Shown: piece after piece, positions 1 through 59,491 of the stretch
How the letters are laid out: each line of letters opens with the position of its first letter
How positions within the stretch are numbered: position 1 is the stretch's first letter
Made by a program: the position numbers and the translations under genes
DNA from: Balanoglossus misakiensis
Taxonomy: Eukaryota > Animalia > Hemichordata
Length of the DNA stretch: 64,000 nucleotides
Direction of reading: 5' to 3'
Assembly: GCA_040954595.2 (NCBI GenBank)
Contig: CM082590.2
Span: 1,550,001-1,614,000, forward strand
Notes under the pieces: generated by a model
The model's input: only the letters and a program-made list of their open reading frames with translations
The model's database searches: none
What the model was told of the DNA's origin: nothing

Positions 1-334
1 AGCCCCAATGCTCTGTTTCATAAAACTGGGCCGCATTGTTCTATCGAATATTTAAAGCCTTATAACTCCGCTCTAGAATATGCCTATTGTTATAGGAGTG
101 GGTCCGGGTTTTATGTTATGTTATGCGAAACTCCCTGCTTTATGGATGCACAACTTTTCCTATTTCCCACCCAATCCTTTAATACCCATACACACCCACT
201 CCTACACCCATAATATATATGAAAACACGTGTCAATTCTAAGATATGAACTTTATTCTTGCTACGATTACGTACAGAAATCAAGCCCCATACATCTGTAA
301 ATTAGGTTATTGTGCCATTAAGGAGCGGACTGGT

Positions 335-1593
335 TTAGAATGCCATAGTGAAGTCTGTTAGATCATTCGCCTGTTCGTAGTTTCGCGTCAGGATCTCTCC
401 TGCATCAGTCACCTCTTTTAACTTCTGGGCTGGTCCTTGGGCCGCTGACACAGAAGATAGTTTGGTGTAATGATTGGCTGTATCTTCTGAACGCCAACCT
501 ATGTGACGCATAAGCTCACTCAACTCCACCCCCGCCAAGGATAATGTGATCGCGCATGCGCTTCTGAGACTGTGTGGTGTTTCCCCTCTATCCATGTTTA
601 GCTCCTGTAGGTACACTTTGAGGCGACTGTACGCTGTTTGGGATGATAGAGGGCGTTGCTCGACTTCACCGCTCGGGGTTGTTGGCCGAAATAGATGACC
701 TCTGCGCAAGTTTACCCCAATCCTTTCCGCCAATGTGATGTATTGTTCTACAGCGTGTACTGGGCAAATATCCACATCTTTACATCGTTTAAGGGCAAAC
801 ATATTTGAAGATGCGCCCCTCAAGGTTTTTCCATAGGTGTGATTGAAAATGAAGCCGGAGTTGTCTGGAAAACGTAGAATTTCTTGTGTTTTTACATGCC
901 CCAGATCACCCGCCCTGTCGCCGGAAAATGCAAGTACTTTAAAGAACGCTAAATCCCTGGCCAGTATGTAAATTTGGGTGAGCGATCTTGCTACGTCTAG
1001 CTTACTTAATACGTGGTTGAATATACGTTTCATTTTTTCTAGAAACAGTGGTTTAGCTTGTCTAGGGGTAATATGTGCTCTGGCTTGTTCTTCCGATATT
1101 TTTTTACGTACCTAAATACCATCGTGGATTTTGCCGGGTTTGCATTATTCGACACTGAGTTGAAACAGACGCCGAGTTTTGAAACCATGTTTTTTATTGT
1201 ACTTGATTTCAGTCGTCTGGGGCAATGACACGGCATTGTACCTGTCCTTCCATAAAAGTCACAAGTATCAACGTGTATTTGCGTTTTAGCGTCTTTATCC
1301 TTGTATATTAGGAATCTGACGACATCCTCAGGTTTTGCCGTTATGAAATTGGTAGTTGGTGATGTAGCGGCTAGAAACTGCTCGAACTGCTGTATGAGTC
1401 TGTCTTTCTGTATTTCGTATAGTGATCTTTGACCGAGAACCTCATGCATGCGTCGGTTTATAGCCTGGATATCCGGCGGACTACCCTTCTTGTGACCCGT
1501 GTGTGGGGTTGTGAGAGAGACTAGGGTAGTAGAACATACATCACATTCAGTATTGGTGGTCTTGCTTGTAGTGCCACATATATAGCATATCAT
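335..1593 (-). CDS. Tyrosine recombinase of the DIRS element; one frameshift in an A7 run at ~1100
   Basis: ORF 335-1033 has the YR catalytic residues R(AGDL)...K(T)...H-S-L-R...H(IGW)...Y. ORF 1039-1692 supplies the N-terminal Cys-rich part and rejoins by a 1-nt shift (...YVKK/ISEEQARAHITPRQAKPLFLEKMKR). The ATG at 1593 directly follows a polypyrimidine-CAG acceptor. Confidence 0.9.
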
Positions 1594-1708
1594 CTGATGG
1601 GAGACAAAGGAAATACTATTGTAGTTTAGATGCGATATTGAGCCTAATATTGTCACATATGGATGCCATTGTGTCGAAATGTATTTGTACATTATAATTA
1701 CTGGGAAT

Positions 1709-3884
1709 TTAAGTGCTGGGTTTGAAAATCACTGCATATAAATCGCAGCGAAGTGGAAATTCATTGTAACCATTTCGCGATGGCGCTTGAATGACCCCTT
1801 CTTCTCCCTTTTTACCAATTAGCTTCGTGTGTGTTGCTTTTTGACGTATCAGTGGCCAGAACGGCTCCAAGAAGCGCCCTCTTGGGACTATGACTGTGGC
1901 TGTATACCGTTTATCTACGATGTGTCGGAGGACCGCATGCACCAATGGAAATGGCGGGTAGACATATGAGGTTTCCTGCCTAGAAAATGTGTGCTGGAAA
2001 AAGTTTACACCTTCACTTCTGGTTTGCTGAAATGGGGAGACGAACCGTGTTAGTTTTGCATTTGAGCTGTTTGCCATTGCATCAACGTGGTGTGGGCCAA
2101 ATTTCTCTTCCAGTAATTGCCACGCACGTGGAGACAGACTTGAATTCTTTAGTGAGATATCGCGAGATGCTCCATCAGCTTCGTTTTCTGCGGACCTGAC
2201 ATGTATTAGCTTCAGTGTGACGTTGTTGTCCATGCAAAAACGAAATATTTTCCTGATAATTTCGTTGAGGGCGTTCGATTTGGTGCCTGGGACTCCATTT
2301 GACCATACTTGGACCAGTGTCATAGAATCCACGTGTACATCGAGCCGCGTGTTCTTAACAGATCCCTGGAATGCGATCAGTGCTCGAGACAGCGCTTCCG
2401 CCTCCTTCAGGACGATTGGGTTTTGTCTCCATACTGTCTCCCACATATCACTGACAGCGGTATCCGTGGCTTCTGTGTCCGATCTATGTAATACAGCACC
2501 CCATTTGTAAGAACTGGCGTCTGTAGACATGGTTACCCGGACATGGTTTTCAGTTGGCCAATGGAATGTCCTTGGGGTTGTGACCACTTGTACCCACTCT
2601 TGCAATTCTTCTCTGAGTGGGCCTTTGATTGGCACCATGTACTTTGCCTGTTTATTTGCGGCAGCAATTGAGCGTGCCATCTGACGGATATATAGACGAG
2701 CACACGGGATAGCAAGGGAGAACGAGACACACTTTCCCATGATCCTTTGTAGGGATGATAATGGAGCGATACGACCGTCCAATACTTGGTTAACTAGCGT
2801 TATAAAAGTATGCCTCGTCGGGTATTGAGAATGCGTTGGCTACTGTGTCGACGGTCATACCCAGCATAATTAGAGACTGTGTTGGCCTGAGGACGCTCTT
2901 ATCTAAAGATATAAAATATCCCGCATCTATACATAACTTGATTAATATATAGGCCGCAGCTTCAGTGAGTTGGTACCTGGTCCATTCGTTGTCGGTAGTT
3001 GCTTGTGGTAAGTATAGTGCGCCCACATGTCTGTCGTCGATGTACTGTATACATGGTACGCCAAGAGACCTCGCATAGCTGGTAATACAGTATCCCACGT
3101 TCTGGTATATGAAGGCGGATAATTTCCATCCAAACGGTAGAGTGTTGTTCACATACCAGGATCCCGCCCACTGGAAACCAACGTAACGCCTTTCGTCCTC
3201 TGCCAGTAGGATGTGATCGTATCCGCTCTTGTCATCGCATTTTATTTGATAATCACACGATTGCAGGTATTTTGAAACTTCTATCAGCTTATCCAATTTA
3301 AAAGGCATGTCCTTCATCCAAAGGTTGAGAAATCTCATATCGATACATAGACGAGGCTTTTGGGGTTCAATTGTGATGGGCATAACTATATGAGGGGGAG
3401 GGGCACACCCTACTCTGCCCCACACCGAAATGGCTCCAGACTTGATTCTATCTTGCAGGGTATTAGCAATAAATTCTCCAAATTTACTACAATTCGGGTT
3501 GTTGTAAAATAACTTGTGAGGGGGTGTATCGTGATCGTATTCGACTCCTTTAAATTGTCCCGAAAAGTGACGAGTGTAATCCGAGATTTTGACTTTCTCC
3601 CGCAACCATGACATAACTAAGTCTTTGTTGTCTAGCCCATTTGTGATGCGATCCCATTCTTGAAGATGTTGATGGACTTCACCAGCCTTAAATTCAGCTG
3701 GATTTCTATAATTTAACTCTTGGGGGCGGGACAGGGTTCTTCCAAAGGCGACCTCTTCGACAGCTGGATTCCCTCCCATCACTTCCTGTCTGGGGGCGCC
3801 CTCCCATGATACCCATGAATACGAGACACGTCCACCACTTGCTTGATGAACGGGGTAGTTCATTTCCCACTGTGGGGTCAAAAA
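1709..3884 (-). CDS. DIRS pol: reverse transcriptase + RNase H + DNA N6-adenine methyltransferase-like domain; frameshift at ~2810
   Basis: RT motifs KPRLCIDMRFLN, DDKSGYDHI, LPFGW, YIDD. RNase H motifs TDASSYKWGAV, LKEAEA, VDS, NEADGASR. DIRS MT motifs VDAMANSSNAKLTRFVS and YVYPPFPLV. The two ORFs join through the alternate frame RHTFITLVNQVLDG. Confidence 0.92.
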
Positions 3885-4145
3885 CTGAAACAAAAGGAAA
3901 ACAGCAAAGCTTAGGACACTTTTTTTTTTTTTTTTTTTTTTTTCGAGGGCGACCCCCCAGACAGGACCCTGCGAAGGCAGGTTGCTTTTAAAGGCATAGG
4001 GCTGTTATTGTTAGCCCCCCTGTCCGAAGGGAAAAGGAAAATAAACTACACAAACACTGAGATTACAGAGTCATATTACTTATTTATTTTTTTTGAATAT
4101 TTCAATGCATCATCGGAAAAGTTATACGATTATCAGTACAATACA

Positions 4146-4676
4146 TTATTTTTTGTCGGGGCAGTCCCTCGCAATGTGCCCCAACTTCGCACATACAAAG
4201 CATTTAATTCCGGATTTGTCAGCCGAATTTCTTGGTTGCTCTCTTCTATAGTAGGGAGAATACGGTGTGCGGTTATATGATGCACGAAGTGGATAGGGCA
4301 TATATCGTCCCGATTCATATTGAGAGAACTGATTAGATGAGCCCGAGTGTTTCATAAACTTGTACACTTTTGAAGCTATTTCTTCCTCTTCTTTATTTCC
4401 CAATAATAGAATAATTAATCTCCCCGCATCTTCCCCGAAATCGGTAGATTCAAATTGGGAGAGCACCGCTCGAAAACGATGCAATTTTGGATGTGCGGTG
4501 GCTGTCGCTCTGTCGACCAGTGCCCTCAAAGCATTAAGTAGTTGGGTTCTGGATGCGACTGCTGGATTGTGGGCCATCTCCATTAGCTTTTGTAAAGCCT
4601 CTTCGACAGATGCTGTCCCAGCATTCTTTTCCAATAACAGTAGTTTCTGTTTCAGCTCCAATAGCTGTTCCTTCAC
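4146..4676 (-). CDS. gag-like protein with C-terminal CCHC zinc knuckle (probable exon 2)
   Basis: Contains CFVCAKLGHIARDC. The ORF begins at GTG immediately after a ...tgtttgtattgtag 3' splice site. Confidence 0.85.
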   Translation of the reverse strand: MKEQLLELKQKLLLLEKNAGTASVEEALQKLMEMAHNPAVASRTQLLNALRALVDRATATAHPKLHRFRAVLSQFESTDFGEDAGRLIILLLGNKEEEEIASKVYKFMKHSGSSNQFSQYESGRYMPYPLRASYNRTPYSPYYRREQPRNSADKSGIKCFVCAKLGHIARDCPDKK

Positions 4677-4842
4677 CTACAATACAAACACCGTTTTGTA
4701 ATGAGTACATCACAGTAACACTAACGCCCATGTACAAAGGTTAACATTATTTTGAATCAATTCTCCTTCCTTTCAGAGCCTCGTACCTTCATTTCATTAT
4801 GAGCCTCATTGCTTCATTATTGTTATTTTGTATACACATACA

Positions 4843-5012
4843 TCTATTTCAATAACCGAGCTCCACTGCTCTATTTCAATAACCGAGCTCCACTGCTCTA
4901 TTTCAATAACCGAGCTCCACTGCTCTATTTCAATAACCGAGCTTCACTGCTCTATTTCAATCATCGAGCTTCACTGCTCTATTTCAATCATCGAGCCCCA
5001 ATGCTCTGTTTC
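4843..5012. repeat. 27-bp minisatellite (~6 copies) inside the DIRS leader intron
   Basis: The unit CTCTATTTCAATAACCGAGCTCCACTG is repeated with small variants. It explains ORFs 4809-5165 and 4828-5016. Confidence 0.95.
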
Positions 5013-5285
5013 ATAAAACTGGGCCGCATTGTTCTATCGAAAATGTACAGGCACCTGGCAGTGGGGTCATGTCACGGTTTTCCACTCCATGCATATTCAA
5101 TGAGGATACAAACATTCACAATGGGGGCAGGTGGCATGCAGGAATTCAACAGGTGTACGCTGTAGTATAATGGGCGTCGAGAAAACCCGTTAACAAAGTA
5201 ATGGGGCATACCGAATGAAACGTACACGTCTAGACATCGGAATGAACAATAAATAAGGTGTACACGAGAAAGGATTTATATGTAC

Positions 5286-5525
5286 CTCATTATCTGCGGT
5301 CGTTTGAGCGTTCGCTTGACGACTCGGACCCGGAACTTGACTATCTGGTCGGCTCGTCGCCCTTTGCTGAGTTGGCTGAGATTGGGAGCCGGCATTACTA
5401 CTTTGGCTGGTAGAAGGCCTGTGTGCAGCTAGGAACGCTGCGACAGCTTGGGTAGCACTCGGCTGTGCCTCTTCTGTGGCCGGTGGTGGTGGTGGCGGGT
5501 TTTCCCGTACAGGTGGTTGAGCCAT
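5286..5525 (-). CDS. Pro/Gln/Ser-rich 80-aa leader exon of the DIRS element
   Basis: ATG at 5525 lies downstream of a TATA box. Exactly 240 nt later is a GAG|GTACAT donor in phase 0, in frame with gag. Confidence 0.6.
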
Positions 5526-5674
5526 CTTCTCTGCTATATGCTGCCTCCGTGGTTAAGGAATGGTACTGAGCCCATGTGCGGATATTCGCTAACTTTTATA
5601 CGGGTTCTCATGAATATTCATAATAAATTAGCATATGCGGATATATATCGCGTAGTGATGCGGCTTTAAATACA

Positions 5675-6721
5675 AATGAGGAGGCCAATATTGCTAATGA
5701 AATTAGCAATTTACTTTCGAAGCAAGTTATTGTGTATTCTCATCACTGTGCTGGTGAATTTCTGTCACCAATTTTTGTTGTACCAAAAAAGGATGGTAAT
5801 TTCAGAATGATTCTTAATCTTAAGTGTCTTAATGAATCAGTGCAGTATCCTCATTTCAAAATGGATACTTTTGAAAACAGCCATACGCCTCGTTGCACGT
5901 GGTTGCTACATGGCATCAGTAGATCTTAAAGATGCGTATTATTCTGTCCCTATTGCAGAAGACCACCAAAAATATCTCAAATTTGTGTGGAAAGGCAATT
6001 TGTTTCAGTATACCTGCCTACCCAATGGATTGGCATCTGCTCCACGTTTGTTTACTAAATTGCTTAAGCCAGTGTATACTACACTTCGCCAAATGGGTCA
6101 CACCATTATGGGTTATATTGATGATTCGTTCCTAGTGGGAAATACCTTCGATGAATGTCATCATAATGTATTGGATACTGTGGCCCTTGTGGAAGAACTT
6201 GGGTTTATGCATAATCCAGTTAAATCTGTTCTCATCCCCACTCAGAAACTCACCTTTTTAGGGTTTGAGATTGACTCTGTTCTAATGATTGTGACATTAA
6301 CGCAATATAAAGCTGACAAGCTAGTTTCAGCATGTGCGGATTTGTTGCGGAAAGACTTTGAGTCCATCCGCATTGTTGCCAGAGTTATTGGTGTGATTTC
6401 CAGTTTCCCTGGAGTAGAATTTGGACCTTTATTTTATAGGTCTCTTGACATAGCAAATATTTCATCATTAAAATTTCACAAAGGCAACTTTGATGCCAAC
6501 ATGGCTATCACAAAAGATATGAAGGTTGATTTAACCTGGTGGTTTCACAATCTACTCAATGAGAAACGTTGCATTTGTAGATGTAACCCTGAAATTTGTG
6601 TTTCTTGTGATGCCTCCAACCTCAGTTGGGGCTTTAGTTGTGATGGAAAAAGGGGAGGGGGCAGATGGACAGCCCAGGAGGCTAGTCACCACATCAACTA
6701 TTTAGAGTTACTGGCAATATA
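5675..6721 (+). pseudogene. Truncated RT/RNase H of a second, different DIRS element
   Basis: Motifs SPIFVVPKKDGNFRMILNLK, VDLKDAYYSVPI, LPNGLASAPRLFTK, YIDD, CDASNLSWG, HINYLELLA. Frameshift at ~5870. Cut on the left by the first DIRS and on the right by the HINE array. Confidence 0.9.
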
Positions 6722-9700
6722 TTTACGGGCCCAAGCCAAGCCAGGCTTGGGCCCGTATTGGTTTCGTTGGAATTTTTACGGGCCCAAGCCAAGCCAGGCT
6801 TGGGCCCTATTGGTTTCGTTGGTATTTTTCAGTCTTTCTTTCTTTCTTTATTCTTATGTCAATTCTTTGTCGCTCTAGATCTCAGACACCACTGCAGGTA
6901 CAGTTCTCAAACTTGCTACAGTGGTCAAGGTCAATGAGTAGTCGTGCATTGAACCCATGAATTTTTAATTAGTCACATGACTTGGCGGCCATCTTGGATT
7001 TTCTGAAAAAATGCAAATCTCAGATCTCAGAAACTACAAGTCAGATCGACTTCAAATTTGGTGTGCAGGTAGTCTACCTTCTACCCATCATTTTTGTAAT
7101 TGGATATTTTGCTGTCAATGTTGCAGTTTTTTTGCTACAATTTTGTTTCTGAAATCTGGCTTAAATTTCAAAAATCTTCTTCTCCAGAACCGGTGATAAC
7201 TGAGTCACGCGGTTTGGGGTATGTGGTCACCTAACTGATGTCTATCAAGTTTGCGAAGATCATTGTGATTGGTCGAAGATTATGGCGGCCATATTGGATT
7301 TTCGAAAAACCATAGTAAAACTTCAAAAATCTTCTTCTCAAGAACGGGCAATAACCGAGTCACAAGATTTGGTGTGTGTGGTCATTAAACAGATGTCTAT
7401 CAAGTTTGCGAAGGGGAATGTGATTGGTCGAAGATTATGGCGGCCATATTGGATTTTGTAAAAAGCATTAAAAAATTGAAATTCCTTTTTCTAGTCTAAA
7501 AATTGATAGCATAGAAATTCTTTGTATGGATATCAATCGTCATGTGACTAAAATATGTTACAAATTTTTGGCGATTTTTCACATGACCTTTGACCTACTT
7601 TTCACATGTTATTATTTCTGCATATTTAATTCCAGGCTAACCTATAGGGCTAGATGTTTGGTTTTTGATGCATGTGGATAAGTGTCTGATCAAAATATTT
7701 TGCTACTTTCCATGACCCCTTTGACCTCTGCTTACCTCATTAATTATGTGCATAGCTAATTACAGGCGAACCAATAGAGGTAGAGGTTTGGTTTTTGTTG
7801 GACATGGACCTGTATGGGATCAAAATTTTTTGCCCAAATGTTGGGTGACCTCTGGTGACCTTTGACCTACTTTCGCATATCTCAACATCCAGAGCAGATA
7901 CAGCCTTGGCATTTGGCAGGATGGGACCTAAATGTAAAGCCAAATTTTTGGCTCACCTGTGACACCTGCTGACCTCATTAAATATGCACATACCTAATTA
8001 CACGCGAACCAATAGAGCTAGAGTTTTGGTTTTTGTTGGACATGGCCCAGCATGGGTCAAAATTTTTTGCCCAAATGTTGGATGACCTCAGGTGACCTTT
8101 GACCTACTTTACCCTATTTCAGCAGCAAAAATACATACGTCCTTGTTATGTCATGAGATAATACACCCGATAGAAAATTATGTTTCTTCTCATTCATACT
8201 GTGCATATATAATTCAAGATCAGCGCTTGGGCCCGACAATGCTGCTTGCAGCTTTAATTAGGGCCCAAGCGCATACCAGCGCTTGGGCCCTATTGGTTTC
8301 GTTGGGGTTTTTAGGGCCCAAGCGCATACCAGCGCTTGGGCCCTATTGGTTTCGTTGGGGTTTTTCTTTCTTTCTTTCTTTCTTTCTTTATTCTTCTGTC
8401 AATTCTTTGTCGCTCTAGATCTCAGACACCGCTGCAGGTACACTTCTGAAACTTGCTACAGTGGTCAAGGTCAATGAGTAGTCGTGCATTGAACCCTTGA
8501 ATTTTTAATTAGTCACGTGACCTGGCGGCCATATTGGATTTTCTGAAAAAATGCAAATCTCAGATCTCAGAAACTACAAGTCAGATCGACTTCAAATTTG
8601 GTGTGCAGGTAGTCTACCTTCTACCCATCATTTTTGTAATTGGATATTTTGCTGTAAATGTTGCAGTTTTTTTGCTACAATTTTTTTTCTGAAATCTGGC
8701 TTAATTTTCAAAAATCTTCTTCTCCAGAACCGGTGATAACTGAGTCACGCGGTTTGGGGTATGTGGTCACCTAACTGATGTCTATCAAGTTTGCGAAGAT
8801 CATTGTGATTGGTCGAAGATTATGGCGGCCATATTGGATTTTCTAAAAACCATTGTAAAATTTCAAAAATCTTCTTCTCAAGAACGGGCGATAACCGAGT
8901 CACAAGATTTGGTGTGTGTGGTCATTAAACAGATGTCTATCAAGTTTGCGAAGGGGAATGTGATTGGTCGAAGATTATGGCGGCCATATTGGATTTTGTG
9001 AAAAACGATTAAAAAGTAAAAATTCCTTTTCTAGCCTTAAAATTGATAGCACAGAAATTCTTTTTATGGATATGAATCATCATATGACAAGAATAAGCTA
9101 TAAATATTTTGGTAATTTTGGCAATGACCTTTGACCTACTTTTGACGCATCATTTTTCTGCATATCTAATTCCAGGCTAACCAATAGGGCTATAAGTTTG
9201 GTTTTTGATGTATGTGGATTTGTATGTGATAAAAAAATTTTGCTACTTTTCATGACCTCTGGTGACCTCATTAAATATGCGCATACCTAATTGATGATGA
9301 ACTAATAGACCTAGAGGTTTTGTTTTTGTTATACATGGACCAGTATGGGGACAAAATATTTTGCCCAAATGTTGGGTGACCTCGGGTGACCTTTGACCTA
9401 CTTTTGCATATATCGACATCCACAACAGATACAGCCTTGACGTTTGGAGGTATGGTTTTTGTTGGACATGGACCACTATGGGTCAAAATTTTCTGCCCAA
9501 ATTGTGGGTGACCTCTGGGTGACCTTTGACCTACTTAACACTATATCAACACCAAACATAGATATAACCTTGATATTTCATGGGATAAAACACAGCATTA
9601 TGGTTCTACTCATTAATGATGTGCATATCTAATAATCTGATCAGATAATAGAGCTTGGGCCCGGACAATGCTGCTTGCAGCTTTAATTCTGTCTTTCTTT

Positions 9701-23400: not shown

Positions 23401-23782
23401 AAACACAGCATTATGTTTCTACTCATTAATTATGTGCATATCTAATAATCTGATCAGATAATAGAGCTTGGGCCCGGACAATGCTGCTTGCAGCTTTAAT
23501 TACGGGCCCAAGCCAAGCCAGGCTTGGGCCCGTATTGGTTTCGCTGGGGTTTTTCTGTCTTTCTTTCTTTCTTTATTCTTGGTTCCATTCTTTATCGCTC
23601 TAGATCTCAGACACCGCTGCAGGTACAGTTCTCAAACTTGCTACAGTGGTCAAGGTCAATGAGTAGATGTGCAGTGACTTGTGAATGCTTCATTTCGACA
23701 ATTCCCATAATACTTTGCGCTAGTGATTGGTTCCGGTCTGGCGACGCCATGTTTAGTTACCGGGTCACTGTGGTTTACAACA

Positions 23783-26394
23783 ATGGATCGCCCGGCAGCT
23801 GTCGTCTGCTCGTTGAATTACCTCAAATCATGGAAACAGGTCAAGTCTCTTACAAAGAGACAACTCGACGCGTGTTGTAAACAGGTCGGTATTACTGTTG
23901 ATGTCGGAAGAAGCGCACAAGAAGTCTTATTGTGTCACAAATTGTCGATCTCCACCGTAGGCAATGTTTCAACCCCATCGAAAAATAGTCGCGATATTGC
24001 AGCGACGTGTACGCGTAAACAACCGGTGAATTTGCTATCTGACAATGAACGGATCGAGTTACAAGCCCTTACGCCTGATGTTGTGAAATCGATGAAAGGC
24101 TGGACAACAGACATCAGTAGTATGCCTGAAGTGGATGTTTCAAAAGTTAAACAATATTTACTACGATGTAATAGTTCTTAGTTCACAGAAACAGATCTCC
24201 GTAAATACAAAGTGTCGAGAAGTTACCAACACATTGTGTCAGGTCATCTCCATTCAGTGAAATTCAACCCGAATGGTAAAAGTGGCTTGTTTTGTCTCAT
24301 TAGTGGACAGTGCATTGCATCACAATCAACAGACCCACAAAGAGTTAAATGGTGTTTTGCAGTATTGGACAAGTGTACTGGTCAACCCTATAGTGGTTAT
24401 TGCATTTGTACAGCAGGGTAAGTCTTGTGATGTGGTTTATTATTATTTTGTAATTATTTTGAAATTGATTCTGGTAGTTGTGTATTGAAGTACTGACAGA
24501 TCAGACAAGAAAAGTTGTTGTGCATTAGGTACCTAAGTTGGTACAGGAGGGTGTCTGTAATTGCATCTTTAATCACCAATTAATTCCATCGTATTTCAGC
24601 CCTGGACAGATATGTTCTCATGTTGGCGCCTTATTGTTTCTTGCTGCTGAGGTAGTTGCAGGTGGATTTGATAAACTGCCTGATGGTCCATCATGTACAG
24701 AAATACCATGTCAGTGGGCAGAACCAAAAGGTAATATCAATATTGGTCAATATGCAGAGTCTTATTGTATAGCAGTTCAGGTGTCAGTGTGTGTTTCCCA
24801 AGTGTATTTGGAGTCACATTTTAAGATTAACACAGACTCAATCCTTACATTTTCACAAAAGTTATATGTGGAGTTCTATAGCCACAATTGCAGGAAAACA
24901 ATTTTGGAATAGCTGTTGTTTAGGTAAACAATCTTCCTATAAAGCCATGAAAAACCTACCCGGGTAGTCACTGTTTACTTGGTACGTGTAAATTGTGCAT
25001 ATTAATTTGATTTTGATTTGAACATTTATGAATGCCTTGTATATTGTTTATTTCCTTTTAGACTTTAAGTGTAAAATATCATGATATGAACAAAACCAAG
25101 AAATGCAAATATTTCAGGTTGTATTATAATGTTGGCCTTTTGATTCTATTTACTAGGTGCTGGAGTTACTCCTGTTCCATTAAAGGAGATACAGCTGGGT
25201 AGGAATAAGAAGCAGTCAGACTTGTCAATTGGAAAACATGAGCCTGTGAAGCCTCAGCAGTTACTGACTACCACATCTTATGACAGAATTTTAAAATTGA
25301 AGCATGACATATTGAATGCCAATATTAACTTGCCACAGCCACCCATCGTACATCTCCTGGATATGAGCAGATTCAGGTCTTCCGAACCAAGCATATCTTC
25401 TCCAGTGAAAACGCTACCTGATGATGGAAATGACCTTGACTCTGTATTAGCATTTTCCAAAGAAATTACCACAGAAACAACTCCAATGGCTATTCCAGAA
25501 ATGCCACATTTACAGTGTGAAAACACACTAAATGAGAAATATGTTACAGAGAAACTGCGATTTCTAAATGATTGTAAACTCACTTCTGAAGAAAGAGACA
25601 AAGTTGCAAATATTACTTTGGGGCAAGGACATAACAATGAATGGATTCAACAGAGAAAAGGCTCTGTAACTTCCACTAAATTTAAGCGCATTGTCTCATT
25701 CTTAAATACTGGTAAATCATCTGCAGATAATCTCATGTCAGATATCATGGGTTATAAATCTTGTGAATACAAGAGTGTGGCAATGGAGTGGGGTATTGAG
25801 CATGAAACCACTGCTATACATAAATACATACAAACACAATCGAATGAGAACTGTAAACTTGATGTAATTCCACAGGGATTGTTGGTACATGAAGACTTTG
25901 CTTACATTAGGGCTTCACCTGATGGTATAGTAACCTGTAGTTGTGACACCTGTCCTAAAAAATTGATTGAAGTAAAGTGTCCATATAAGCACAGGCATAT
26001 ATCTCCACAGGAGGCTGTTCATAACAAGTTAGTTGACTATATTTCTTATGATAGTCAATCAGGAATTTACACTTTGAGAAAGAATCACACAAGAGGCTAT
26101 TTTGAACAAGTAACTGTTCAAATGGCAGTATCACAAGTGTACATCTTGGATTTTGTTGTATGGACATGCAAGGGACTGCTTGTTGTTCCTGTTGAGTTTG
26201 ATGAAAAATACTGGTTGGAGTTGCTCTTGCCAGCCTCAGTGGCTTTTTTCACAAATTTCATTGTCCCAGAGATTTTGACATCTTCTTTGAAAGAAAAACT
26301 CAAAAGAGATGTGCCTGTGAATATTTCAGACAATATCCCACCACAGGAAACAACAAGCAGTGACAGTGATGTGTCGAGTGTTGATGACTGTTGA
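23783..26394 (+). CDS. SWIM zinc finger + YqaJ/lambda-exonuclease-like protein (exons ~23783-24418, 24600-24730, 25158-26394); in-frame TAG at 24179
   Basis: SWIM motif CICTAG/PGQICSH is split by a GT-AG intron. YqaJ motifs WIQQRKGSVTSTKF, WGIEHE, ASPDG, EVKCP, YFEQV. Confidence 0.85.
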
Positions 26395-26935
26395 TTTATC
26401 AACAGAAAAACAACCAGTACTGGCATGCACACAAAACTGTTAGGATGAGAGGCGAGAGCACCAAATTACTCAAGAGTGTAAGGCCACTTGATGAAATGTG
26501 ATGTCAATTTGAAATGCTTGAAATAAGTCATGGATTACTTTCTTCCAGTTTTACTTTTTAAATATTACACTCGGTCTCAGTTCCCACTGATATCTGGAAA
26601 CAAAATGAACTTGTATAATAAGGAAATGTATCTTGCTGTGCTAATGTTTATGCGTGTGCTTTGAGGTGTTACACACCCATCGCCATAACCAATGGCATTC
26701 CATTGTTCAATACATTTCTATATTTGACAATACAACGTGCCAATATGAAACTCCTGTGCATGTGAACCCATGTGTTGAGAAACTGAAGTCTGAAGCATGA
26801 GATGTTTGGCTAGATGTCAGTTCATTTGCATGTCAGTCCATTATACATAATAAATACATGTAAGTCATGTTTTTGGTGAAATAAACATTCATGTTTATTG
26901 CATGTATTCACTGTCTCTTTGCACATTGACTTTGA

Positions 26936-27118
26936 CAGCTTGGCCCAAAACAATCTGATTAAATCAGATGTGGGGTTGGCCCAAACTTTACCTTAGCTGA
27001 TTCTTGACTGTTCTGTTCGCCACACTACAGATGGACATCCAAGAACAGAACTTCCAAGAATCAGGTTAAGATCGAGTCAAACCTACATCTGATTATAATC
27101 AGATTGGGCCCAAACCTG
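26936..27118. repeat. ~180-bp fold-back/MITE-like inverted repeat between the convergent ISL2EU genes
   Basis: ...CAATCTGATTAAATCAGATGTGGGGTTG...CTGATTCTTG is mirrored by CAAGAATCAG...CAAACCTACATCTGATTATAATCAGATTG.... Confidence 0.7.
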
Positions 27119-28962
27119 TTATTGAACAATTGGTGTTTGGAAATTCACCAAGTATGCACATACTTTGAAAATATTCTCTGCTGATTCCAGCATCGACAGT
27201 TTCAGATCACCATCAAGAATGTGATACGTCTTTATACGCTGGATAATACGCTCAATATGCCCTCGTACAGTTGAAACTCTCTCAGAATATTCTAATTCAT
27301 GCTTGGAAAGCTGTGGTCGATCACATCCCTTAAATGCTGGAACATAGAACTTAACACCAATATCTGACAATTCAACTTCAATCCTGAACCCTCTATCTGC
27401 CATCACCGCCCCCTGATTGTCTCTCAAACTGTCCATCAAATCACAGGATTGTGTTGTTATGTGTTTGTCTGATGCACGTCCACCATACAGCCGACTGATG
27501 TATGTGACTGCCAAGTTTGGGCTCATACCAACTAGGTATTTATATGTATTGTGGTGTTTGTAATTTGAAAACACTTGCTTTTTAGCATCACATCGTTTTG
27601 GTGTCTGTATGAATAACTCGGTACAGTCTAAGATAATTTGAATATTTGAGAAATCATTTACAACAGAGGACTGATTTTCTTGAGTGACAATACTTGGTGG
27701 AAGTTTGCAGAGAAACTCAAGTTGCATGCACATCAAGTTTACCCAGGTGTTAAATATGATAGACACAGTACTGACAGATACATCAAATCGCTCTGCTAAG
27801 TCCTGAAGCAAAAGCCCAACACTTAAACGTACCAAAGTCAAAAAAAATTCTTCCTCAAGTGTCAGTTTCCGGTCAGACCCAGGCTTACTTGAGCATCTGG
27901 TACTGAAATGTTCATACAAATGGGTCCTGGAACCACTCCAGTATTTCATATTTTTAGCTATCGGTTCCAGATAGCTGAATAAAGCATAGAATGTACCGTA
28001 GTTAGGAAATCTTGTCCAAAACTGCATTTTTTTGGGATTGTGTTTATATTCTCTAATCGCAGTGTTTGTCTTTTCAGTTTCTCAATTTCATACTCCATTT
28101 CTGCAATTTTATTATGGGCCTCACTGTGAATTTCTTCCATGGAGGGTTGTACATAGGTGTGATCAGCAGATGGTGGAGGGACAATGGTCAGTTCAGATCG
28201 GGGTCTTCCTTTCCTGGCAAAAGTTAACCTCCTCCTTGTCTTTGGTTTCTTCAATGCTCTTTGGTTCTTAAGTGGACTAACTTGCTGCTTTGATGATGTC
28301 AGACTAGTCCTCGGAGTTGTTTGTTTCATCTTCAGTTTCGGCACATAGCCTTCATCTGACGGGCTATCACTCTTTCCTGTAATTAGAAACACAAAATGGT
28401 TTTCAAAACTTTTCTTTATCATCAATCACACATTTTGAATGGAAACAAATTTAGGGTTCCAGGGTTTTAAAGTATAAACCGGGTTACAACGTCCCCAAAT
28501 GATTTGCAGAGGGCGCTCATAATGCCCATGTTTGGGATTACGTCATTCACATTGCCGAGACAACGTTGTTGATGCCGGTTGCTAGGTAGCGCGCCATCTT
28601 GTAAGGGGATCTTACTTTCAGTTTGTACATCGTTTCGTGTTTCTCCCAAAGCAAACTTTTTATTACTTATCCCAACACTACACATAAACGATGCTCTATT
28701 TGATTCTTGATTTTTCTAACGTACCTTTCGGGAAATGATCTGAGCACACCCTCATCCATGACTTCGGCTCCCAGTTTGGTTCGCCCCGTCGTATCGCATC
28801 GACCCAAAGCTTCAATCTCTTTTTATCTTTCATAGGAAAAGAATAATACGATCTCCGTATTCCAGCTTCCAAATCAGAACCCTTGCTGTTTGTGCACATT
28901 GGCATACAGCAATAGGTGCCACGACCACGCCGTTTTCGCCGAAAAACTTTTGGAGAAAACAT
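27119..28962 (-). CDS. THAP + Harbinger-type DDE transposase (exon 1 ~28962-28725, exon 2 28376-27119); frameshift in an A7 run at ~28030
   Basis: THAP motif CCMPMC...FP...W...VCSDHF. HTH segment LQDLAERFDVSVSTVS. Catalytic motifs LDCTE, YKHHNTYK, GRASD, ADRGF, HIERIIQRIK. Confidence 0.9.
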
Positions 28963-40130: not shown

Positions 40131-42990
40131 GTTGTTCCTCCCTCGATACGAGGATGAGCTTGACTCCATATCAGAACGAAGGTCAGTTGTTGTGGGTCCG
40201 AAGATGACTGATGAGGCCAATCCGGGCCCGTAGGGCACGTCCACATATGGGACAGGTATGGGTAGGTGCTGCGTTGCAAGTGTTGGCAGCTCGAGCTTTG
40301 CGCGCTTCACGTTTCTGCTGTGCTTCTGTAGTGCGTCGCTTCTCTGCTGCGCGGGCGCCAGTGCTGACTTTGCTACGCCAAGTAGGACGGTTGGTAGCAA
40401 TCTGCTCCCAGGTGCTGATGTTAATATTCATGTCTTTGAGGGACGCTTTGAGGCTGTCCTTAAAGCGTTTCTTCTGTCCCCCGACTGAGCGCTTTCCTTC
40501 GCACAGTTCTCCATACAATAGTTGTTTTGGCAGTCGGCTGTCGGGCATTCTGACGACATGACCTGCCCATCTGACCTGTGCTTTCTGTAGAAGTGTGTGT
40601 ATGCTGGGGGTGCCGGCCTGTTCTAGGACTTCCGTGTCGGGGATTTTGTCCTGCCACTTGATGCGTAGGAGTCTACGAAGGCAGCACAAGTGAAAACGGT
40701 TTAGCTGTTTAGCATGTCTGCTGTAGACAGTCCAGGTCTCACAGGCGTAGAGAAGGGTGGTAAGCACAACTGCGCGATAGACCTTCAGCTTGGTGGCGAA
40801 AGTGAGTCCCCTCCGCTCCCAGACGTTCTCACGGAGTCTCCCAAAAGCAGAGCTAGCCTTGGCGATCCTGTTGGTGACTTCTGCATCAATGTTCACCGCT
40901 CTTGAAAGTGTGCTGCCCAGGTAGGTGAAGCTGTCGACAGCCTGGAGAGCATGTCCCTTCACCGTGATGTGTGGTTTTCTGAAAGGCTGTCCTGGTGCAG
41001 GCTGAAACATTACTTCCGTCTTTTTTGTGCTTATAGTGAGTCCAAAGTTGTCACAGGCTCTTGAGAGGCAGTCCATCTCGTGCTGCATCTTCTGCTCAGT
41101 GCCAGCGTTGAGGGCGCAGTCATCAGCGAACAAAAAGTCTCTGATGATAGTCTCCTTCACCTTGGTAACAGCCTGCAAGCGTCGGAGGTTAAACAGACCA
41201 CCATCAGTCCTGTACCTGACATGCATCCCTTCCTGGCAATCACGGAAGGCATCTGTCAGCATGGCTGAGAAGACCATGCTAAACAGCGTTGGAGCAAGAA
41301 CACATCCTTGTTTCACGCCGTTTGTCACAGGGAAAGCCTCTGACTCATCTCCGTCATCTAGTACCTTCACCATCATGCCGTCATGGAACTGCCGGACGAT
41401 CGTGATGAACTTGCTTGGGCAGCCAAACTTCTCCATTATCTTCCATAAGCCATCCCTGCTGACTGTGTCGAAGGCCTTTGTCAAATCGACAAAGGTCACA
41501 AAAAGGTTTCGGTGCTGCTCTTGACATTTTTCTTGGAGTTGGCGTGCAGCAAATATCATGTCGACTGTTCCACGTTCGGCCCGAAACCCACACTGACTTT
41601 CGGGAAGGTAACCCTGCTCTAGGTGTTGGAGGAGACGATTGAGCAAGACACGAGCCAGGATCTTCCCAGCTATGGACAGGAGAGAGATGCCGCGGTGGTT
41701 GTTGCAGGACTGGCGGTTGCCTTTCCTCTTGTAAATGTGAACCATGGTGGCGTCTTTCAGTTGTTGAGGGACCTTTCCTTCATTCCACATGGACTGGAAG
41801 AGTTTCGTCAGTTTCTGCATCAGGGCTGGTCCTCCTACTCTGTATACCTCTGCAGGAATTGCGTCTGATCCTGGTGCTTTGCCACGGGAAAGTTGCTTGA
41901 CGGCCTTTCTGACTTCTTCTTCTGAGGGGGGATTGTCGAGATCCTTGTTGATCTCGACTTGGGGTAGGCGGGCGATGGCTGCATTGTTGATCGAGGCGGG
42001 GCGGTTCAGGACCTGATTGAAGTGATCAGCCCATCTGTTAAGAATCTTTTTCTTCTCTGTGAGCAGCTGTGTCCCGTCTGCAGTAAGGAGAGGAGAGGAG
42101 CCGGTCGACTGAGGTCCGTACACAGACTTCAAGGCATCGTAAAAGCGCTTGGTGTCATGACTGTCCGCATAGACCTGTATTTCTTCGGCCTTCGAGCAGT
42201 ACCACGTATCCTGCATCTCACGAAGCTTTGTCTGTACCTTGCTTTTCACACGGGCAAAGGCATTTTTCTTGGCTTGTGACGTGGGGTCATTCTGATGTGC
42301 TCGGAAGAACTGGTGTTTTTCTGACAGGAGTACCTGTATCTCCACATCATTCTCGTCAAACCAGTCCTGATGTTTGCGGGTCGTTGGTCCAAGGTGTTCA
42401 AGGGCTGTGGAGTACACCACTTCTCTGAAAGCTGTCCACTGTTCCTCGGTGCTGACCTGTTCATCCTGGGGTGTATCTGGCAGTCTGCCGTCAAGGTCCC
42501 TGGCAAAATTCTGAGCGATGTTGGTGTTTTTCAACTTGGAAACGTTGAGTCTCTTTGCACTCTTCTGGCCTTGTGGTCTTCTCTTTGGCAGGATGCGAAG
42601 TTTACACTTAGATGCTACTAGTCGATTGTCAGTCCAGCAGTCGGCACCACACATAGCCCTTGTCACTCTCACATCCTGTACGTCCCTTTTCCTGGTGATG
42701 ACATAGTCAATTAGGTGCCAGTGTCTGGAGCGTGGATGCATCCAGGTTGTCTTGTTGTGGGTGGGAAGCCGGAACAGTGTGTTGGTGAGGGTGAGGTTAT
42801 GGGTGGCACACAACTTGAGGAGCAGAAGGCCGTTGCTGTTGCACTTGCCAATGCCATGTCTTCCAATGATCCCGTCCCAGGTTTGGTAATCTGTTCCCAC
42901 TCTGGTATTGAGATCTCCGAGGATGAAGAGCTTTTCTGACTGTGGGACTGCGGCAATGAGGGTGTCCAATTCTTCATAGAACTTGTCCTT
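40131..42990 (-). mobile_element. RTE-clade non-LTR retrotransposon, 5'-truncated, young
   Basis: 6-bp TSD GGAGAT at 40125-40130 and 42991-42996. Short 3' UTR with a CCTCG-TAT-CGAGG stem-loop and an AACAAC tail. The ORF is uninterrupted. Confidence 0.95.
40183..42969 (-). CDS. RTE ORF: partial APE endonuclease + reverse transcriptase + C-terminal C2H2 finger (928 aa)
   Basis: Motifs LGDLNTRVG, TTWMHPRSRHWHLIDY, KAPGSDAIP, QCGFR, FVDLTKAFDTV, GVKQGCVLAP, FADD, CPICGR...HLRTH. Confidence 0.97.
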   Translation of the reverse strand: MDTLIAAVPQSEKLFILGDLNTRVGTDYQTWDGIIGRHGIGKCNSNGLLLLKLCATHNLTLTNTLFRLPTHNKTTWMHPRSRHWHLIDYVITRKRDVQDVRVTRAMCGADCWTDNRLVASKCKLRILPKRRPQGQKSAKRLNVSKLKNTNIAQNFARDLDGRLPDTPQDEQVSTEEQWTAFREVVYSTALEHLGPTTRKHQDWFDENDVEIQVLLSEKHQFFRAHQNDPTSQAKKNAFARVKSKVQTKLREMQDTWYCSKAEEIQVYADSHDTKRFYDALKSVYGPQSTGSSPLLTADGTQLLTEKKKILNRWADHFNQVLNRPASINNAAIARLPQVEINKDLDNPPSEEEVRKAVKQLSRGKAPGSDAIPAEVYRVGGPALMQKLTKLFQSMWNEGKVPQQLKDATMVHIYKRKGNRQSCNNHRGISLLSIAGKILARVLLNRLLQHLEQGYLPESQCGFRAERGTVDMIFAARQLQEKCQEQHRNLFVTFVDLTKAFDTVSRDGLWKIMEKFGCPSKFITIVRQFHDGMMVKVLDDGDESEAFPVTNGVKQGCVLAPTLFSMVFSAMLTDAFRDCQEGMHVRYRTDGGLFNLRRLQAVTKVKETIIRDFLFADDCALNAGTEQKMQHEMDCLSRACDNFGLTISTKKTEVMFQPAPGQPFRKPHITVKGHALQAVDSFTYLGSTLSRAVNIDAEVTNRIAKASSAFGRLRENVWERRGLTFATKLKVYRAVVLTTLLYACETWTVYSRHAKQLNRFHLCCLRRLLRIKWQDKIPDTEVLEQAGTPSIHTLLQKAQVRWAGHVVRMPDSRLPKQLLYGELCEGKRSVGGQKKRFKDSLKASLKDMNINISTWEQIATNRPTWRSKVSTGARAAEKRRTTEAQQKREARKARAANTCNAAPTHTCPICGRALRARIGLISHLRTHNN

Positions 42991-43039
42991 GGAGATACAT
43001 GTAAATTGACAGTTATTTCTAACTTGTCAAATTTTGCAG

Positions 43040-52154: not shown

Positions 52155-53133
52155 ATGGACGAAGAGTCAGAACTGTACAAAAAACTCCTGCAGGGTGATA
52201 TAGAACGCCTGCCATCGCAAGAGTCGAACATAGTTCGTATATTTATAAGTTCAACATTCACAGGTGAGTGCGTAGGCCAGCTAATTGAACAGTAAAAATC
52301 TGTGAAAAAAATGAAGTGTATAGAATTTGCACATCTGTCGCATCTAGATTGCCCATAAGCAAAGCCCTAACAAAGTAGAGTAAACTTAAAATAACCTAAA
52401 CGATCATGAGCAATATTATCGTTACTGCTATTTATATTCATTTTAAACCTCTGAAATTCAAAATACACACATTTCTTGAATTATAAGAATTTAGAAATGA
52501 TGAAGTGAGATCTGTATGTTATCAAATTTTACCGCACAAAAGTGTTAAATTTATAAGCTTGGGCAAAACATGCAAATCCATATATGTTTTTTTATTATCA
52601 ATTGCCAATTATAAATCTAGCAGCAGCATGATATCTGTACTTGACTGAGCTGTACACAATTATTATTGTTGTATCTCAATTTAGACATGGAGGAAGAGAG
52701 AAACAAGTTGATGAGGGACGCTTTTCCCATATTACGATCATACTGCCAGAACAAAGGCTTGGAATTCGAAGTTGTCGATATGAGGTGGGGGATTCGCGAC
52801 GAGGCCAGTTCGGATCACATGACGTCGGAATTGTGCATCCGGGAGATTGCCAATTGCCAGCGGCTGTCTAGAGGCCCGAACTTTGTGGTACGCCTGTTTT
52901 ACTGAGACCTTTCAGAGGGGCATGCACCAACACAAGGATTGGTGGTTATATTAAAATTTCAAATTTGAGACAATTTTAATTCTCTCTCTCATTCAAAAGT
53001 TTGCATGGTGACCCCAATTTTTATTCTCAATTTTCTTGAGCAAAATTTTTTTTGAGGTGCATACTAAATTTAATTTGGTGTTTTTTCTCTGTCTGTCTCT
53101 GTCTGTCTGTCTCTGTCTGTCTGTCTCTCTGTC

Positions 53134-53165
<32 letters not shown>

Positions 53166-56100
53166 AGGTTTTCTTAGGTAACAAATATGGGTATCGTCCT
53201 CTGCCTCCACATATCAAAGCAGAAGATTTTGAAAAACTGCGAGAACTGTCCAAATCGACCACATCTCCTGAAGACGTCCAACTACTGGACAGATGGTATC
53301 TAAAAGATGCTAATGCAGTACCTGAAGACTATGTTCTTCAGCCTATCACAACATACCTGCCGTATTTCAACAACGAGGATGACAATTTTGCCAACCAGCG
53401 GGCACAAGATCGACAGAAATGGTGGGAAGTATCGCAAACACTACAGGCTTTGCTGAAGTCAGCGGCTGACTGTGCCATCAAAACTGGAGTTTATGATGAG
53501 GAAAAAGTAGAGAATCTATTCATATCAGGTACTAACAGTGAAAAGTGTGGTTAGTGTAGACTTAGACAAACATAATGCCAACGACTTCATGAGTTAAATG
53601 TTGCACAGTTGTGGCACAATAACAGTCAAGCAACTTTCAAACACTCTAGAATAAAATATCACATGTGCAGAGAAAAAGATTATGTGAATTTAAAAGTGTA
53701 CATACATGTAACCTTCATTTTATTTATCATACACCACAGTAACCGAAGAAGAAGTCAAAGAAGCAATCATCATCAATCCAGATGCAGCTGACCAATGTTT
53801 GTGTTTTGTACGAGAAATTGAAGAGGCTGAGAATATCATAGAAGATGAACAGGCCAAGCATTATGTGGACTTGAAGGACGAGAGGTGCTTTACCTTTTTT
53901 CTCTTGTGGCATTTATTATTTCACTCACATTTTGGGACTGATTAGACATTTCTTGAGTTGAACAATAAGACATAACATAAGAAGCTTGGTTATCATAACT
54001 GCTGAATGCATGATTTTTTTTCTCTTGTCTCAGCACAGGCTTTATTCAAAGTCATCCTTGTGTAAATTTAAAATTTTTCCATCCCAACACATGAAAATCA
54101 CTTTGGGATAACTCACCACATGATCAAACATTTCTGTGTCTTGTAGAATACAAGTAGTCTTACTGTGTCCTTATTTGCTTAATATTAAAATGTCAAATGT
54201 TGTAATTTCTAAATGAAGTAGACTATAAAGCACATTGGGTGACACGCATGGCTGAATGTTTTAAGTTTCAAATTTATGAAAAAATAGACCTGGCAGAGTT
54301 GAAATATTGTGTGTTTTCATTGTGTCGATGAAACTAAAAGAAAACAAGTACGCCTTTTGTCCTTTCAGAGCAATCGACCAGGAAGCGCAAGCCCTACTGA
54401 TTAAACTGAAGCGGGAAAAACTGATTGCCAAAATGAACAAAGGCATGTTGAGAAAATGGTCGGTGCCCTGGACACCAAATGGGGTCGACCAGTCCAATCC
54501 GCAACACAAAGAATACCTGGAGGCTTTATGTGATGATTTTATCAGGAGTATTAAACAGCTGATCGTTAAAGGATCATATAAAAAGAGTGGTTGGGTGCCA
54601 GATGCGGATTTGTATAAAGAAGTTGTCCACCATGCCAAGTTTTGTGAAACAAAGTGCAGGTAGGGAATGTTGTAAAAGTTTGCACTGTAAGTAAGGCCTA
54701 TAGCTTTCCAGCCACTATTAGTACCTAACAGTTTGTTAACTAAGACTACAGTATGGTAATTAGCGATTTCTGATGTAATCACAATTTTGATAATCAAACC
54801 TTAAAACTATCAGATTTACTTGTATTCTCTCCTCCTGCAAAGAATTTCATTCAGTACCTCTAAGTTTATTTGTACAAAATGCGGTTATGTATGGTCTGGT
54901 TTCCATTGCAGGGCTTTCAGAGGAAGAGAGTCCATGTTAAAGTCCATCGAAGAGTATGTTAAAGACAGAGACCACATGAGCCCACTTTGTGTACACGGAT
55001 TATCAGGGTCTGGAAAAACCTCAGTAATGGCAATGGTCGCCAAGAATTCCAGGGAGTGGCTTGGAGCAGCAGGAATATGTGTGTTCCGGTTCCTCGGAAC
55101 GTCACCACACAGCAGCGGCATTCATCAGACCCTTCAAAGTATTTGCAAACAGGTAAGTAAACTATGCACCAATATTCACCTGGTAGTGAAATGGAAGACT
55201 CGGTTGGAATGTCACTTTTATTTTATCTCCGCATTATAGATATTTTTAGAAAATAAATCTCTTTTTATTTCATCCATATGTTTATCTCTCATAGTAAGGA
55301 TGGCATTGGCGACCCACAGAAATTTGGTGAATGGGTAATATTGAACTTGCTACTTGCTGAAACTGAACAAACATATTTCTGTGCATTTTATGTATAATTT
55401 ATTGTAAGGCATGCGATCTAAAATGCAAATATCTTTCTGCCTTCACTCATGCAGATATGTGAGGTTTACAATCACCCAGTACCAGATGCAGAGATTTTAG
55501 AAGACTATACATCAACAATGCAACATTTTAAGAAGTTACTAGACACAGTGCCATCAAAAGAATCCACCTTGGTGCTGGTACTTGACAGTATCAACCAACT
55601 TTCCTCGTCCCATGATGCCCATGCACTAAACTGGCTGCCCAAGACACTCCCGAAGCATGTTTGAATTGTGGTCTCCATGCTGCCTGATGTTCATGGATGC
55701 CTTGAGGTGTTGCGGAGAAACCTGGTCGATCAGAGATGCTATCTGGAGATGCAACCTGTGACGGGCAACATGGGGAGGGAGATTCTCGACGCGTGGCTGG
55801 ACAGCAAACAGAGGAAAATAACAGAGGCGCAAAGAGTGGCGATTCTGACCGCGCTCGAGGGGTGCCCGCAGCCGCTATTCTTGAAAATCGCGTTTGACAA
55901 CATGATTCACTGGAAGTCATACACGCCTGCCGATGATACAAAGATCGCTCGCAGCATCCGTGAGGCAATAGAAGTTTTATTTGACGGCCTGGAGAAGTAG
56001 TACGGCAAAGTCTTTGTGTCCCACGCCTTGGCGTACATAACTGCCGCAAAAGACGGAATAACTGAAGCAGAGCTTGAAGACGTGCTATCATTGGACGATG

Positions 56101-59100: not shown

Positions 59101-59491
59101 ATTTAAAGAGCAATTTGACTTCTGTGCCAAAAGAGGACATGCAGGCAGCTTTGTTAAATAATTATAATTAACACTTACCAGTTTATTTTTCTTCTTTTGT
59201 TTCAGTAAACTTGCCAGAGAATTCACAGGTCACCACCATGCCGTCATGACCATCCACATCACAGAAGACGATAGATTCCTTCTGTCCGGATCCCGTGACT
59301 GCACGCTGAAAGTCTGGGATTTGTCCTGTGCCGAGCTGTTGGCGTCATTCGATTTCCAGTCACAGGTGCAAACGCTTGGTGTCTCCAAGGAGATTGTTCC
59401 CAATAGCGGCCGATACAAAGTCGTGGCTGCGAATAAATCAGGAATGGTTGGTTTGTTTGATCTGCAGCTGATGTCAGTTTTGCACGGGTAA
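52155..59491 (+). pseudogene. NWD1/NWD2-like gene (DUF4062-type N-terminus, NACHT NTPase, WD40 repeats), ~9 exons, disabled
   Basis: Motifs VRIFISSTFT/DMEEERNKL, VVDMRWGIR, FLGNKYGYRPLP, Walker A GLSGSGKT, Walker B LVLDSINQL, WYHRQF, NLRKLSELPY, and many GH...WD repeats. In-frame TGA at 55662, TAG at 55998, frameshift at ~57183. Confidence 0.9.
53095..53165. repeat. (CT/CTGT)n microsatellite acting as a polypyrimidine tract
   Basis: Runs directly into CAG|GTTTTCTTAGGT, an NWD exon start. Confidence 0.9.

Follow-up and report, generated by a model that had tools for sequence, protein, structure and literature searches.

A coding leader exon likely spliced to gag, pol and recombinase acceptors in a PAT-like tyrosine recombinase retrotransposon of Balanoglossus misakiensis

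The sequence analysed, henceforth referred to as the window, is a stretch of 64,000 nucleotides (nt) from the hemichordate Balanoglossus misakiensis (GenBank assembly GCA_040954595.2, contig CM082590.2, positions 1,550,001 to 1,614,000 of the forward strand). A tyrosine recombinase (YR) retrotransposon lies on the minus strand as a single copy running from window position 5673, its 5' end, to position 47. The element contains three open reading frames (ORFs), gag, pol and YR, and is likely to make the corresponding proteins by splicing one coding first exon to three phase-0 acceptors, as judged from its sequence. Its features are listed below in the direction of transcription, with a slash marking each predicted splice junction.

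5522..5673, minus strand: A1 split direct repeat at the 5' end of the element, where every full copy starts; it contains the promoter, and its last bases are the leader ATG.
5594..5600, minus strand: TATA box (TATAAAA, by sequence match), 75 nt before the ATG.
5286..5525, minus strand: coding part of the predicted leader exon, 80 low-complexity codons with a short conserved A-F-[LV]-x-x-H motif; ATG at 5525.
5280..5285, minus strand: predicted 5' splice donor, phase 0, GAG/gtacat, the same in 8/8 leader-bearing copies.
4843..5037, minus strand: 27-bp minisatellite in the predicted first intron.
4146..4676, minus strand: gag exon, 176 codons, with a CCHC knuckle (zf-CCHC, E 4.8e-6) and the predicted acceptor ...ttgtag/GTG.
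4083..4088, minus strand: AATAAA after the gag stop, candidate poly(A) signal of the gag message.
3959..4025, minus strand: predicted four-way RNA junction (outer stem and three hairpins; minimum-energy fold) in the gag-pol spacer.
1709..3884, minus strand: pol exon encoding reverse transcriptase (RT; RVT_1, E 5e-8), RNase H and, by a weak match, a possible methyltransferase-like domain; strong predicted phase-0 CAG acceptor ...tttcag/TTT.
335..1593, minus strand: YR exon encoding a zinc ribbon, an ALOG domain (ALOG_dom, E 1.6e-20) and the tyrosine recombinase (Phage_integrase, E 1.2e-11); predicted phase-0 acceptor ...catcag/ATG.
251..256, minus strand: AATAAA after the YR stop.
47..122, minus strand: B1 split direct repeat, which returns as B2 at the 3' end of sister copies.
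1..46, minus strand: start of a tandem duplicate of 5050-47 that runs past window position 1 and finishes in B1-A2-B2.

Sister copies with 92-99% identity all start at the point corresponding to 5673 and finish in split direct repeats B1-A2-B2. The A repeat is seen again in them as A2, after B1, at 96%; repeat sizes are 152-155 nt for A and 76 nt for B, as measured in the sister copies and in the duplicated tail of the window element. The Pfam matches to zf-CCHC in gag, RVT_1 in pol, and ALOG and Phage_integrase in YR are all above cut-off. The RNase H match (E 5e-4) falls below its curated cut-off, as does the match to Dam after RNase H (E 0.009, 16.1 bits against a cut-off of 28.1), which stands at the expected place, beside a YPPF motif that we take to be methyltransferase motif IV. 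In YR, the N-terminal zinc ribbon precedes the ALOG domain, and its cysteines C3, C6, C17 and C20 are invariant in 19/19 sequences. With split direct repeats in the order A1...B1-A2-B2, direct terminal repeats, and gag, RT-RNase H and YR coding regions, the element is classed by repeat layout and domains as a PAT-like, ALOG-type YR retrotransposon. Strict DIRS1-like membership was rejected on the direct orientation of the repeats, the only inverted match between the element ends being imperfect and 23 nt long. Ngaro membership was rejected on the methyltransferase-like stretch after RNase H (itself a weak match), together with the lack of a hydrolase match after YR. The tree of relatives holds only sequences found in this analysis.

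The window copy is broken, with 364 codons of pol and 184 codons of YR readable from their acceptors and frame breaks near 2.8 kb in pol and 1.1 kb in YR. Among the eight copies of the window family that were measured, pol is full length in four and YR in three. The tandem duplicate is a head-to-tail repeat of 5050-47, 99.92% identical and carrying the same two frame breaks (L021, G000:C18:1544001-1550200); it may be either a recombinase-type local duplication or an assembly artefact. At its joint, the end of B1 is joined to a similar short site in the first intron. The end of B (47-60) and the start of A (5660-5673) form 11-nt inverted arms around a 6-nt spacer, an arrangement also found at the B1-A2 joints of sister copies and resembling, by analogy, a tyrosine recombinase crossover site. 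No clear target-site duplication was seen in the element flanks.

The sequence-only reading of this stretch had proposed the TATA box, the leader, its donor and three acceptors in phase with their ORFs, and each was recovered on the minus strand, the acceptors in phase 0 at 4676, 3884 and 1593. The coding parts do not overlap, as had also been claimed, gag stopping at 4146 and pol at 1709. The gag acceptor TAG is at the same time an in-frame stop, and the first methionine of gag is codon 32. Among 304 AGs scored in a sister copy with identical sites, the pol acceptor ranks first and the YR acceptor fourth. Within the window family the gag AG is kept in 9/9 copies, the YR AG in all 8 copies holding the region, and the pol acceptor is intact in 7/9. 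The two exceptions are internally deleted copies, one without the pyrimidine tract and the other with single-base losses following the AG and the leader ATG. Apart from that 1-nt loss, the three copies with indels in the leader have them in multiples of three. The distance from donor to gag ranges from 583 to 3197 nt among copies through the 27-bp minisatellite, a fivefold span over which the splice sites are unchanged. A variable poly(A) run of 15-46 nt was also noted in the gag-pol spacer of 6/11 families (window 3920-3943); in one copy it replaces the pyrimidine tract of the acceptor. Upstream of the TATA box (window 5650-5610), an octamer-like TATGC(A/T)AAT and the palindrome ATGAATAT(T/G)CAT recur across families, each in a subset, and are candidate transcription-factor sites on their sequence.

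The check proposed with the sequence-only reading, comparison with other copies and related families, was carried out by DNA and protein searches of the genome and bore it out. Eleven families with a resolvable 5' end were obtained, several degenerate loci being unresolvable and left out. YR proteins are 30-66% identical between families (10 measured). All 11 families share the same design: a TATA box, an ATG 63-101 nt later, a low-complexity leader of 63-93 codons ending in a phase-0 GT donor, and a phase-0 YAG where the homology of gag, of pol and of YR begins. One leader, from a decayed copy, has an internal stop. The T fraction goes up across the donor in 11/11 families, and three further families have a phase-0 donor or phase-0 acceptors wherever these are readable. 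Since the sites had been called by eye, they were retested without regard to phase. With a matrix trained on the two remaining ORF classes, the top choice was the called AG at 27/33 sites and an in-phase AG at 29/33 (0.42 expected). A pyrimidine rule anchored on conserved residues, with one gag left out for a frame break, found an in-phase AG at 30/32 sites (0.48 expected), against 41/174 control positions inside ORFs. Across families, the phase pattern of the splice sites exceeds chance.

Many of the ORFs lack a start of their own. Nine of the 33 acceptors coincide with a TAG stop that is in frame with the next ORF. The first methionine of pol lies 38-173 codons in for 7/11 families, though an invariant WE motif sits at most 10 codons from the acceptor, and the first methionine of YR lies 51-131 codons in, beyond the zinc ribbon, for 3/11. 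A metagenome scan returned 79 loci and 54 rows with a YR start, of which 47 were anchored and 7 dropped, giving 23 sequence clusters. In 20 of these clusters the AG preferred without regard to phase stands exactly 42 nt ahead of the first cysteine of YR (15 are in-frame TAGs), and 19 of the 23 have no methionine before that cysteine. Four longer metagenome contigs carry Pro/Gln/Ala-rich leaders ending in GAG/gta, with phase cleanly readable only in L070, the others being decayed. In a further metagenome element (L098:1-719) the gag frame is open through a leader-like stretch to the contig start, and this element may belong to a family that lacks the first intron or be a spliced form. Among 14 pol proteins with N-terminal extensions, picked from 150 listed, in 8 the extension resembles intron read-through and has Q as its last residue immediately ahead of pol.

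Public gene models of close relatives, themselves predictions, contain the leader-gag and leader-pol joins and use the YR acceptor. When 35 RefSeq proteins of Ptychodera flava were mapped on the predicted exons, 17 were found to join leader to gag (10 models; families F4, F5 and F6) or leader to pol (7 models; F8) at the exact predicted residue. The other mapped proteins comprise 15 from families without a close match in this genome and 3 that start inside pol. All 13 Gag matches among 16 P. flava matches have a low-complexity, leader-like N-terminus, 12 with F-[VA]-x-x-H; one further protein joins an F11-like leader to pol, and a search with the leader only gave a single match, a leader-pol model. 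Leader exons are 90-97% identical to the P. flava proteins, the F4 leader being lower at 44/55 residues. Some models leave out a good gag exon or interrupt a long pol frame, which may hint at transcript support. Four families (L031, L034, L041 and L045) are 90-99% protein-identical to P. flava elements (P0140-P0142, P0070); such near-identity would reflect either a very close host or horizontal transfer.

The spacer between gag and pol holds a second conserved feature. A four-way junction of 62-67 nt is the minimum-energy fold in 8/8 families folded (z -1.0 to -3.4). RNAalifold on the raw MAFFT alignment missed this fold because the rows were out of register, and single folds and a covariance model were used. 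In the model-fitted alignment, which leans to the model, 90.5% of cells pair and 6/21 pairs have a compensatory change. Rfam gave no match in window 1-5800, four-way junction included. A genome search for the junction scored 150 candidates and gave 47 matches, 20 of them outside known loci. Seventeen of these 20 were fetched, none with RT or YR nearby, 15 with gag remains and 14 with B repeats. Eleven junction loci with both repeats are non-autonomous derivatives of 2.6-4.1 kb, and in one derivative gag is broken and the pol AG mutated while the junction is retained. Several derivative families were noted (L140-L150, L153, L154, L158, L159), some in many near-identical copies; they retain the repeats, the leader, the first intron, the four-way junction and, where checked, the first 40-90 pol codons, and gag is complete in some. 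Downstream of the gag stop, 9/10 families have a poly(A) signal (4.0 expected), which precedes the junction in families that have one; the signal is missing from one sister copy of the window family. Another follows YR in 8/11 (2.7 expected). Since the junction lies between the gag poly(A) signal and the pol acceptor, it would occur only in unspliced RNA. Its conservation makes it a candidate genomic-RNA signal, likely with a role in packaging or in replication/priming.

The same data could be read in a way that dispenses with splicing. The splice signals would be by-products of T-rich spacers, the ORFs would be translated by reinitiation or internal entry, and the four-way junction would act as an internal ribosome entry site for pol. 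The spacers are indeed AT-rich, several donors and acceptors are weak, and the structured RNA is located 65-165 nt upstream of pol. Phase and position are nevertheless fixed far beyond chance, in-frame TAG stops stand directly before conserved domains, and the junction survives in derivatives without RT and YR, including the one with a mutated pol acceptor AG. This explanation is considered very improbable.

Several observations weigh against splicing from a shared leader. The nominal P values of the two phase-blind tests, 2e-8 and 3e-9, overstate independence because the families share ancestry. Gag opens with ATG in three families and YR in two, F6 and F1, the latter being the family of the window. 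In the window family, YR has an ATG at the acceptor and another 33 codons upstream, so this family alone is no proof that splicing is needed; its gag acceptor is weak, and both phase-blind rules favour an out-of-phase AG 44 nt upstream. Its donor fits the consensus at only 6/9 positions, and a textbook branch-point match is absent 10-60 nt before all three acceptors. Across families the called donors, chosen by eye, are top or tied in 9/11 and sole top in only 4. The poly(A) signal after pol is not enriched (6/11 families against 4.5 expected), and neither families F9-F11 nor 32 metagenome loci yielded the four-way junction. Genomic copies lacking the intron were not found: 8/8 leader-bearing F1 copies and 9/9 F7 copies continue through the donor into the intron, and fetched loci matching both the leader and a downstream exon always have at least 537 nt between them. 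This absence fits selective copying of unspliced RNA and is no direct proof of splicing. The RefSeq models, being predictions, could reflect a gene finder's choice of identical signals. Finally, direct leader-to-YR joining occurs in none of the 8 YR-containing P. flava models.

The last point bears on an alternative in which leader-gag and leader-pol splicing are real, and the recombinase is expressed by another route. Its message would either contain three exons, with a short piece of pol between leader and YR, or be spliced or reinitiated and translated from the ATG of YR itself. In the 8 YR-containing P. flava models, the predicted YR acceptor is always paired with a phase-0 donor 84 codons inside pol, the first YR codon is ATG in the two families named above, and a leader-YR intron has to skip two acceptors over about 4 kb. 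The internal pol GT, however, has no counterpart at the aligned position of the window family and its column is not conserved, so that this donor, found in F8, was rejected as a general route to YR. The YR acceptor shares the phase of the leader donor in 11/11 families. In addition, a 52-residue low-complexity N-terminus leads straight into YR in two Mytilus californianus models, which enter YR at the residue also used by a M. galloprovincialis model; this N-terminus is known from protein models. The alternative is judged unlikely on balance. The claim of one leader, three acceptors and three proteins is supported by the P. flava models for gag and pol, and not for the direct leader-YR join. 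That join, suggested in this genome by phase alone, is the weakest link, because the P. flava models reach YR through a short pol exon.

Acceptors might also serve partners from outside the element, with a spliced leader separating the ORFs of a polycistronic RNA, or with host exons lying upstream being joined to them. An acceptor before each ORF is also typical of trans-spliced operons. Mammals, according to PMC4495291, have on two occasions captured a DIRS1-like gag as an alternative last exon. Neither version accounts for the presence within the element of a conserved coding exon with a donor in phase, for the start-less ORFs, or for RefSeq models that use the element's own leader, and outside partners are regarded as extremely improbable.

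Splicing of the element's own leader to its three acceptors is the preferred reading and is considered likely. The anatomy and its conservation are plain from the genomic copies, and the following scheme would fit them. One promoter in repeat A would give one transcript, starting about 30 nt after the TATA box. Translation would start in the leader exon, giving all products the same, probably disordered N-terminal tag, and the leader donor would pair with one of the three acceptors to yield leader-Gag, leader-Pol or leader-YR; as the sequence-only reading supposed, this choice might also set the stoichiometry of the proteins. In its message gag would likely be an alternative last exon, ending at the poly(A) signal behind it. 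RNA left unspliced, which could code only for a short leader peptide, would be the genome; it would bear the four-way junction and the terminal repeats and would be the form that is copied.

A wider proposal is possible though doubtful. In it, a whole YR lineage in marine animals would use three-way alternative splicing in place of a Gag-Pol polyprotein, the shared F-V-x-x-H tag would co-assemble Gag, reverse transcriptase and recombinase into one particle, and the four-way junction, kept only in unspliced RNA, would select or prime the genome. If true, this would answer how primer-less elements start reverse transcription. Independently of that proposal, a shared leader exon would explain how a little-studied element class expresses three separate ORFs, and it gives exact junctions to seek in existing RNA-seq. 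It would also account for the start-less or dead appearance of these ORFs in ORF finders, with the consequence that existing annotations and estimates of activity may be mistaken. For the missing cis-signal, the four-way junction offers a concrete candidate.

Other features of the window were noted in passing. Positions 5811-6878 (plus strand), just upstream of the element and on the opposite strand, hold part of a second DIRS-type RT/RNase H (RVT_1, E 9e-17). Two convergent ORFs lie within 23711-28425; from their motifs, that at 25144-26394 (plus) presumably resembles a YqaJ-type recombinase and that at 27119-28081 (minus) a Harbinger-type DDE nuclease. A 947-codon ORF at 40183-43026 (minus) is taken to be the endonuclease and reverse transcriptase of an RTE-like long interspersed nuclear element. 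Exons at 53012-59161 (plus) presumably belong to a NACHT/WD40-type gene with unusually long WD-repeat exons.

The comparison with known systems draws on the portions of the cited papers that were available. ALOG-containing DIRS1-type retroposons (Iyer and Aravind 2012, PMC3537659) share with the present element a zinc-knuckle Gag, RT-RNase H, a YR with zinc ribbon and ALOG domain, direct terminal repeats and, as far as the weak Dam match goes, an adenine-methylase-like domain, and they occur in marine animals including a hemichordate. In its available portion, that paper leaves fast-diverging 5' ORFs unexplained, judges all metazoan copies inactive and nowhere mentions splicing or introns; the elements described here differ in forming young multi-copy families with a predicted splicing programme. 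The PAT superfamily of the DIRS order (PMC3266345, PMC7192593) shares the split direct repeats A1...B1-A2-B2 and probably, given the weak Dam match, a methyltransferase-like domain after RNase H, and a PAT-like family is reported there as common to Nematostella and Saccoglossus. A leader exon or introns are not described in the available PAT accounts, and the words 'intron' and 'splic' are absent from the available text of PMC3266345. The same source records long ORF overlaps in only half of 28 DIRS1-like elements, so the statement in the sequence-only reading that classical DIRS elements usually have overlapping ORFs was too strong.

Within the DIRS-order literature examined, no report of spliced expression and no account of how downstream ORFs get translated were found; early Goodwin and Poulter papers and Repbase entries could mention introns, and information relevant to ORF starts may be present in the additional files of PMC3537659 (file 1) and PMC3266345 (file 3). 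Abascal et al. (PMC4495291, as available) inferred that the mammalian-captured DIRS1-like gag brought its own acceptor and poly(A) signal, and the shared-leader design would offer a reason for such co-option as an alternative last exon. According to PMC7192593, no primer for reverse transcription is known.

Spliced expression itself has precedents, each described here as far as the available text of its source extends. In foamy virus (PMC3705302), translation of Pol begins at a start codon of its own and unspliced RNA is the source of Gag, whereas in the present element splicing would be needed for Gag as well, and the coding first exon would be common to all three proteins. Plant Ty1/Copia elements (PMC5580714) likewise combine alternative splicing with early polyadenylation to give a Gag-only message and excess structural protein; they differ in using one splice within a single gag-pol frame, in making the enzymes from unspliced RNA and in having no shared leader exon. 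In Cer1 of C. elegans (PMC10309623), the CERV protein is made from a spliced message and unspliced genomic RNA must escape nuclear retention, but CERV is an accessory export protein and Gag and Pol come from unspliced RNA. The element class is known, as is spliced expression in foamy viruses, Copia and Cer1; the three-way shared-leader design, as predicted here, has no counterpart in the literature examined, and the conserved four-way junction is a new observation.

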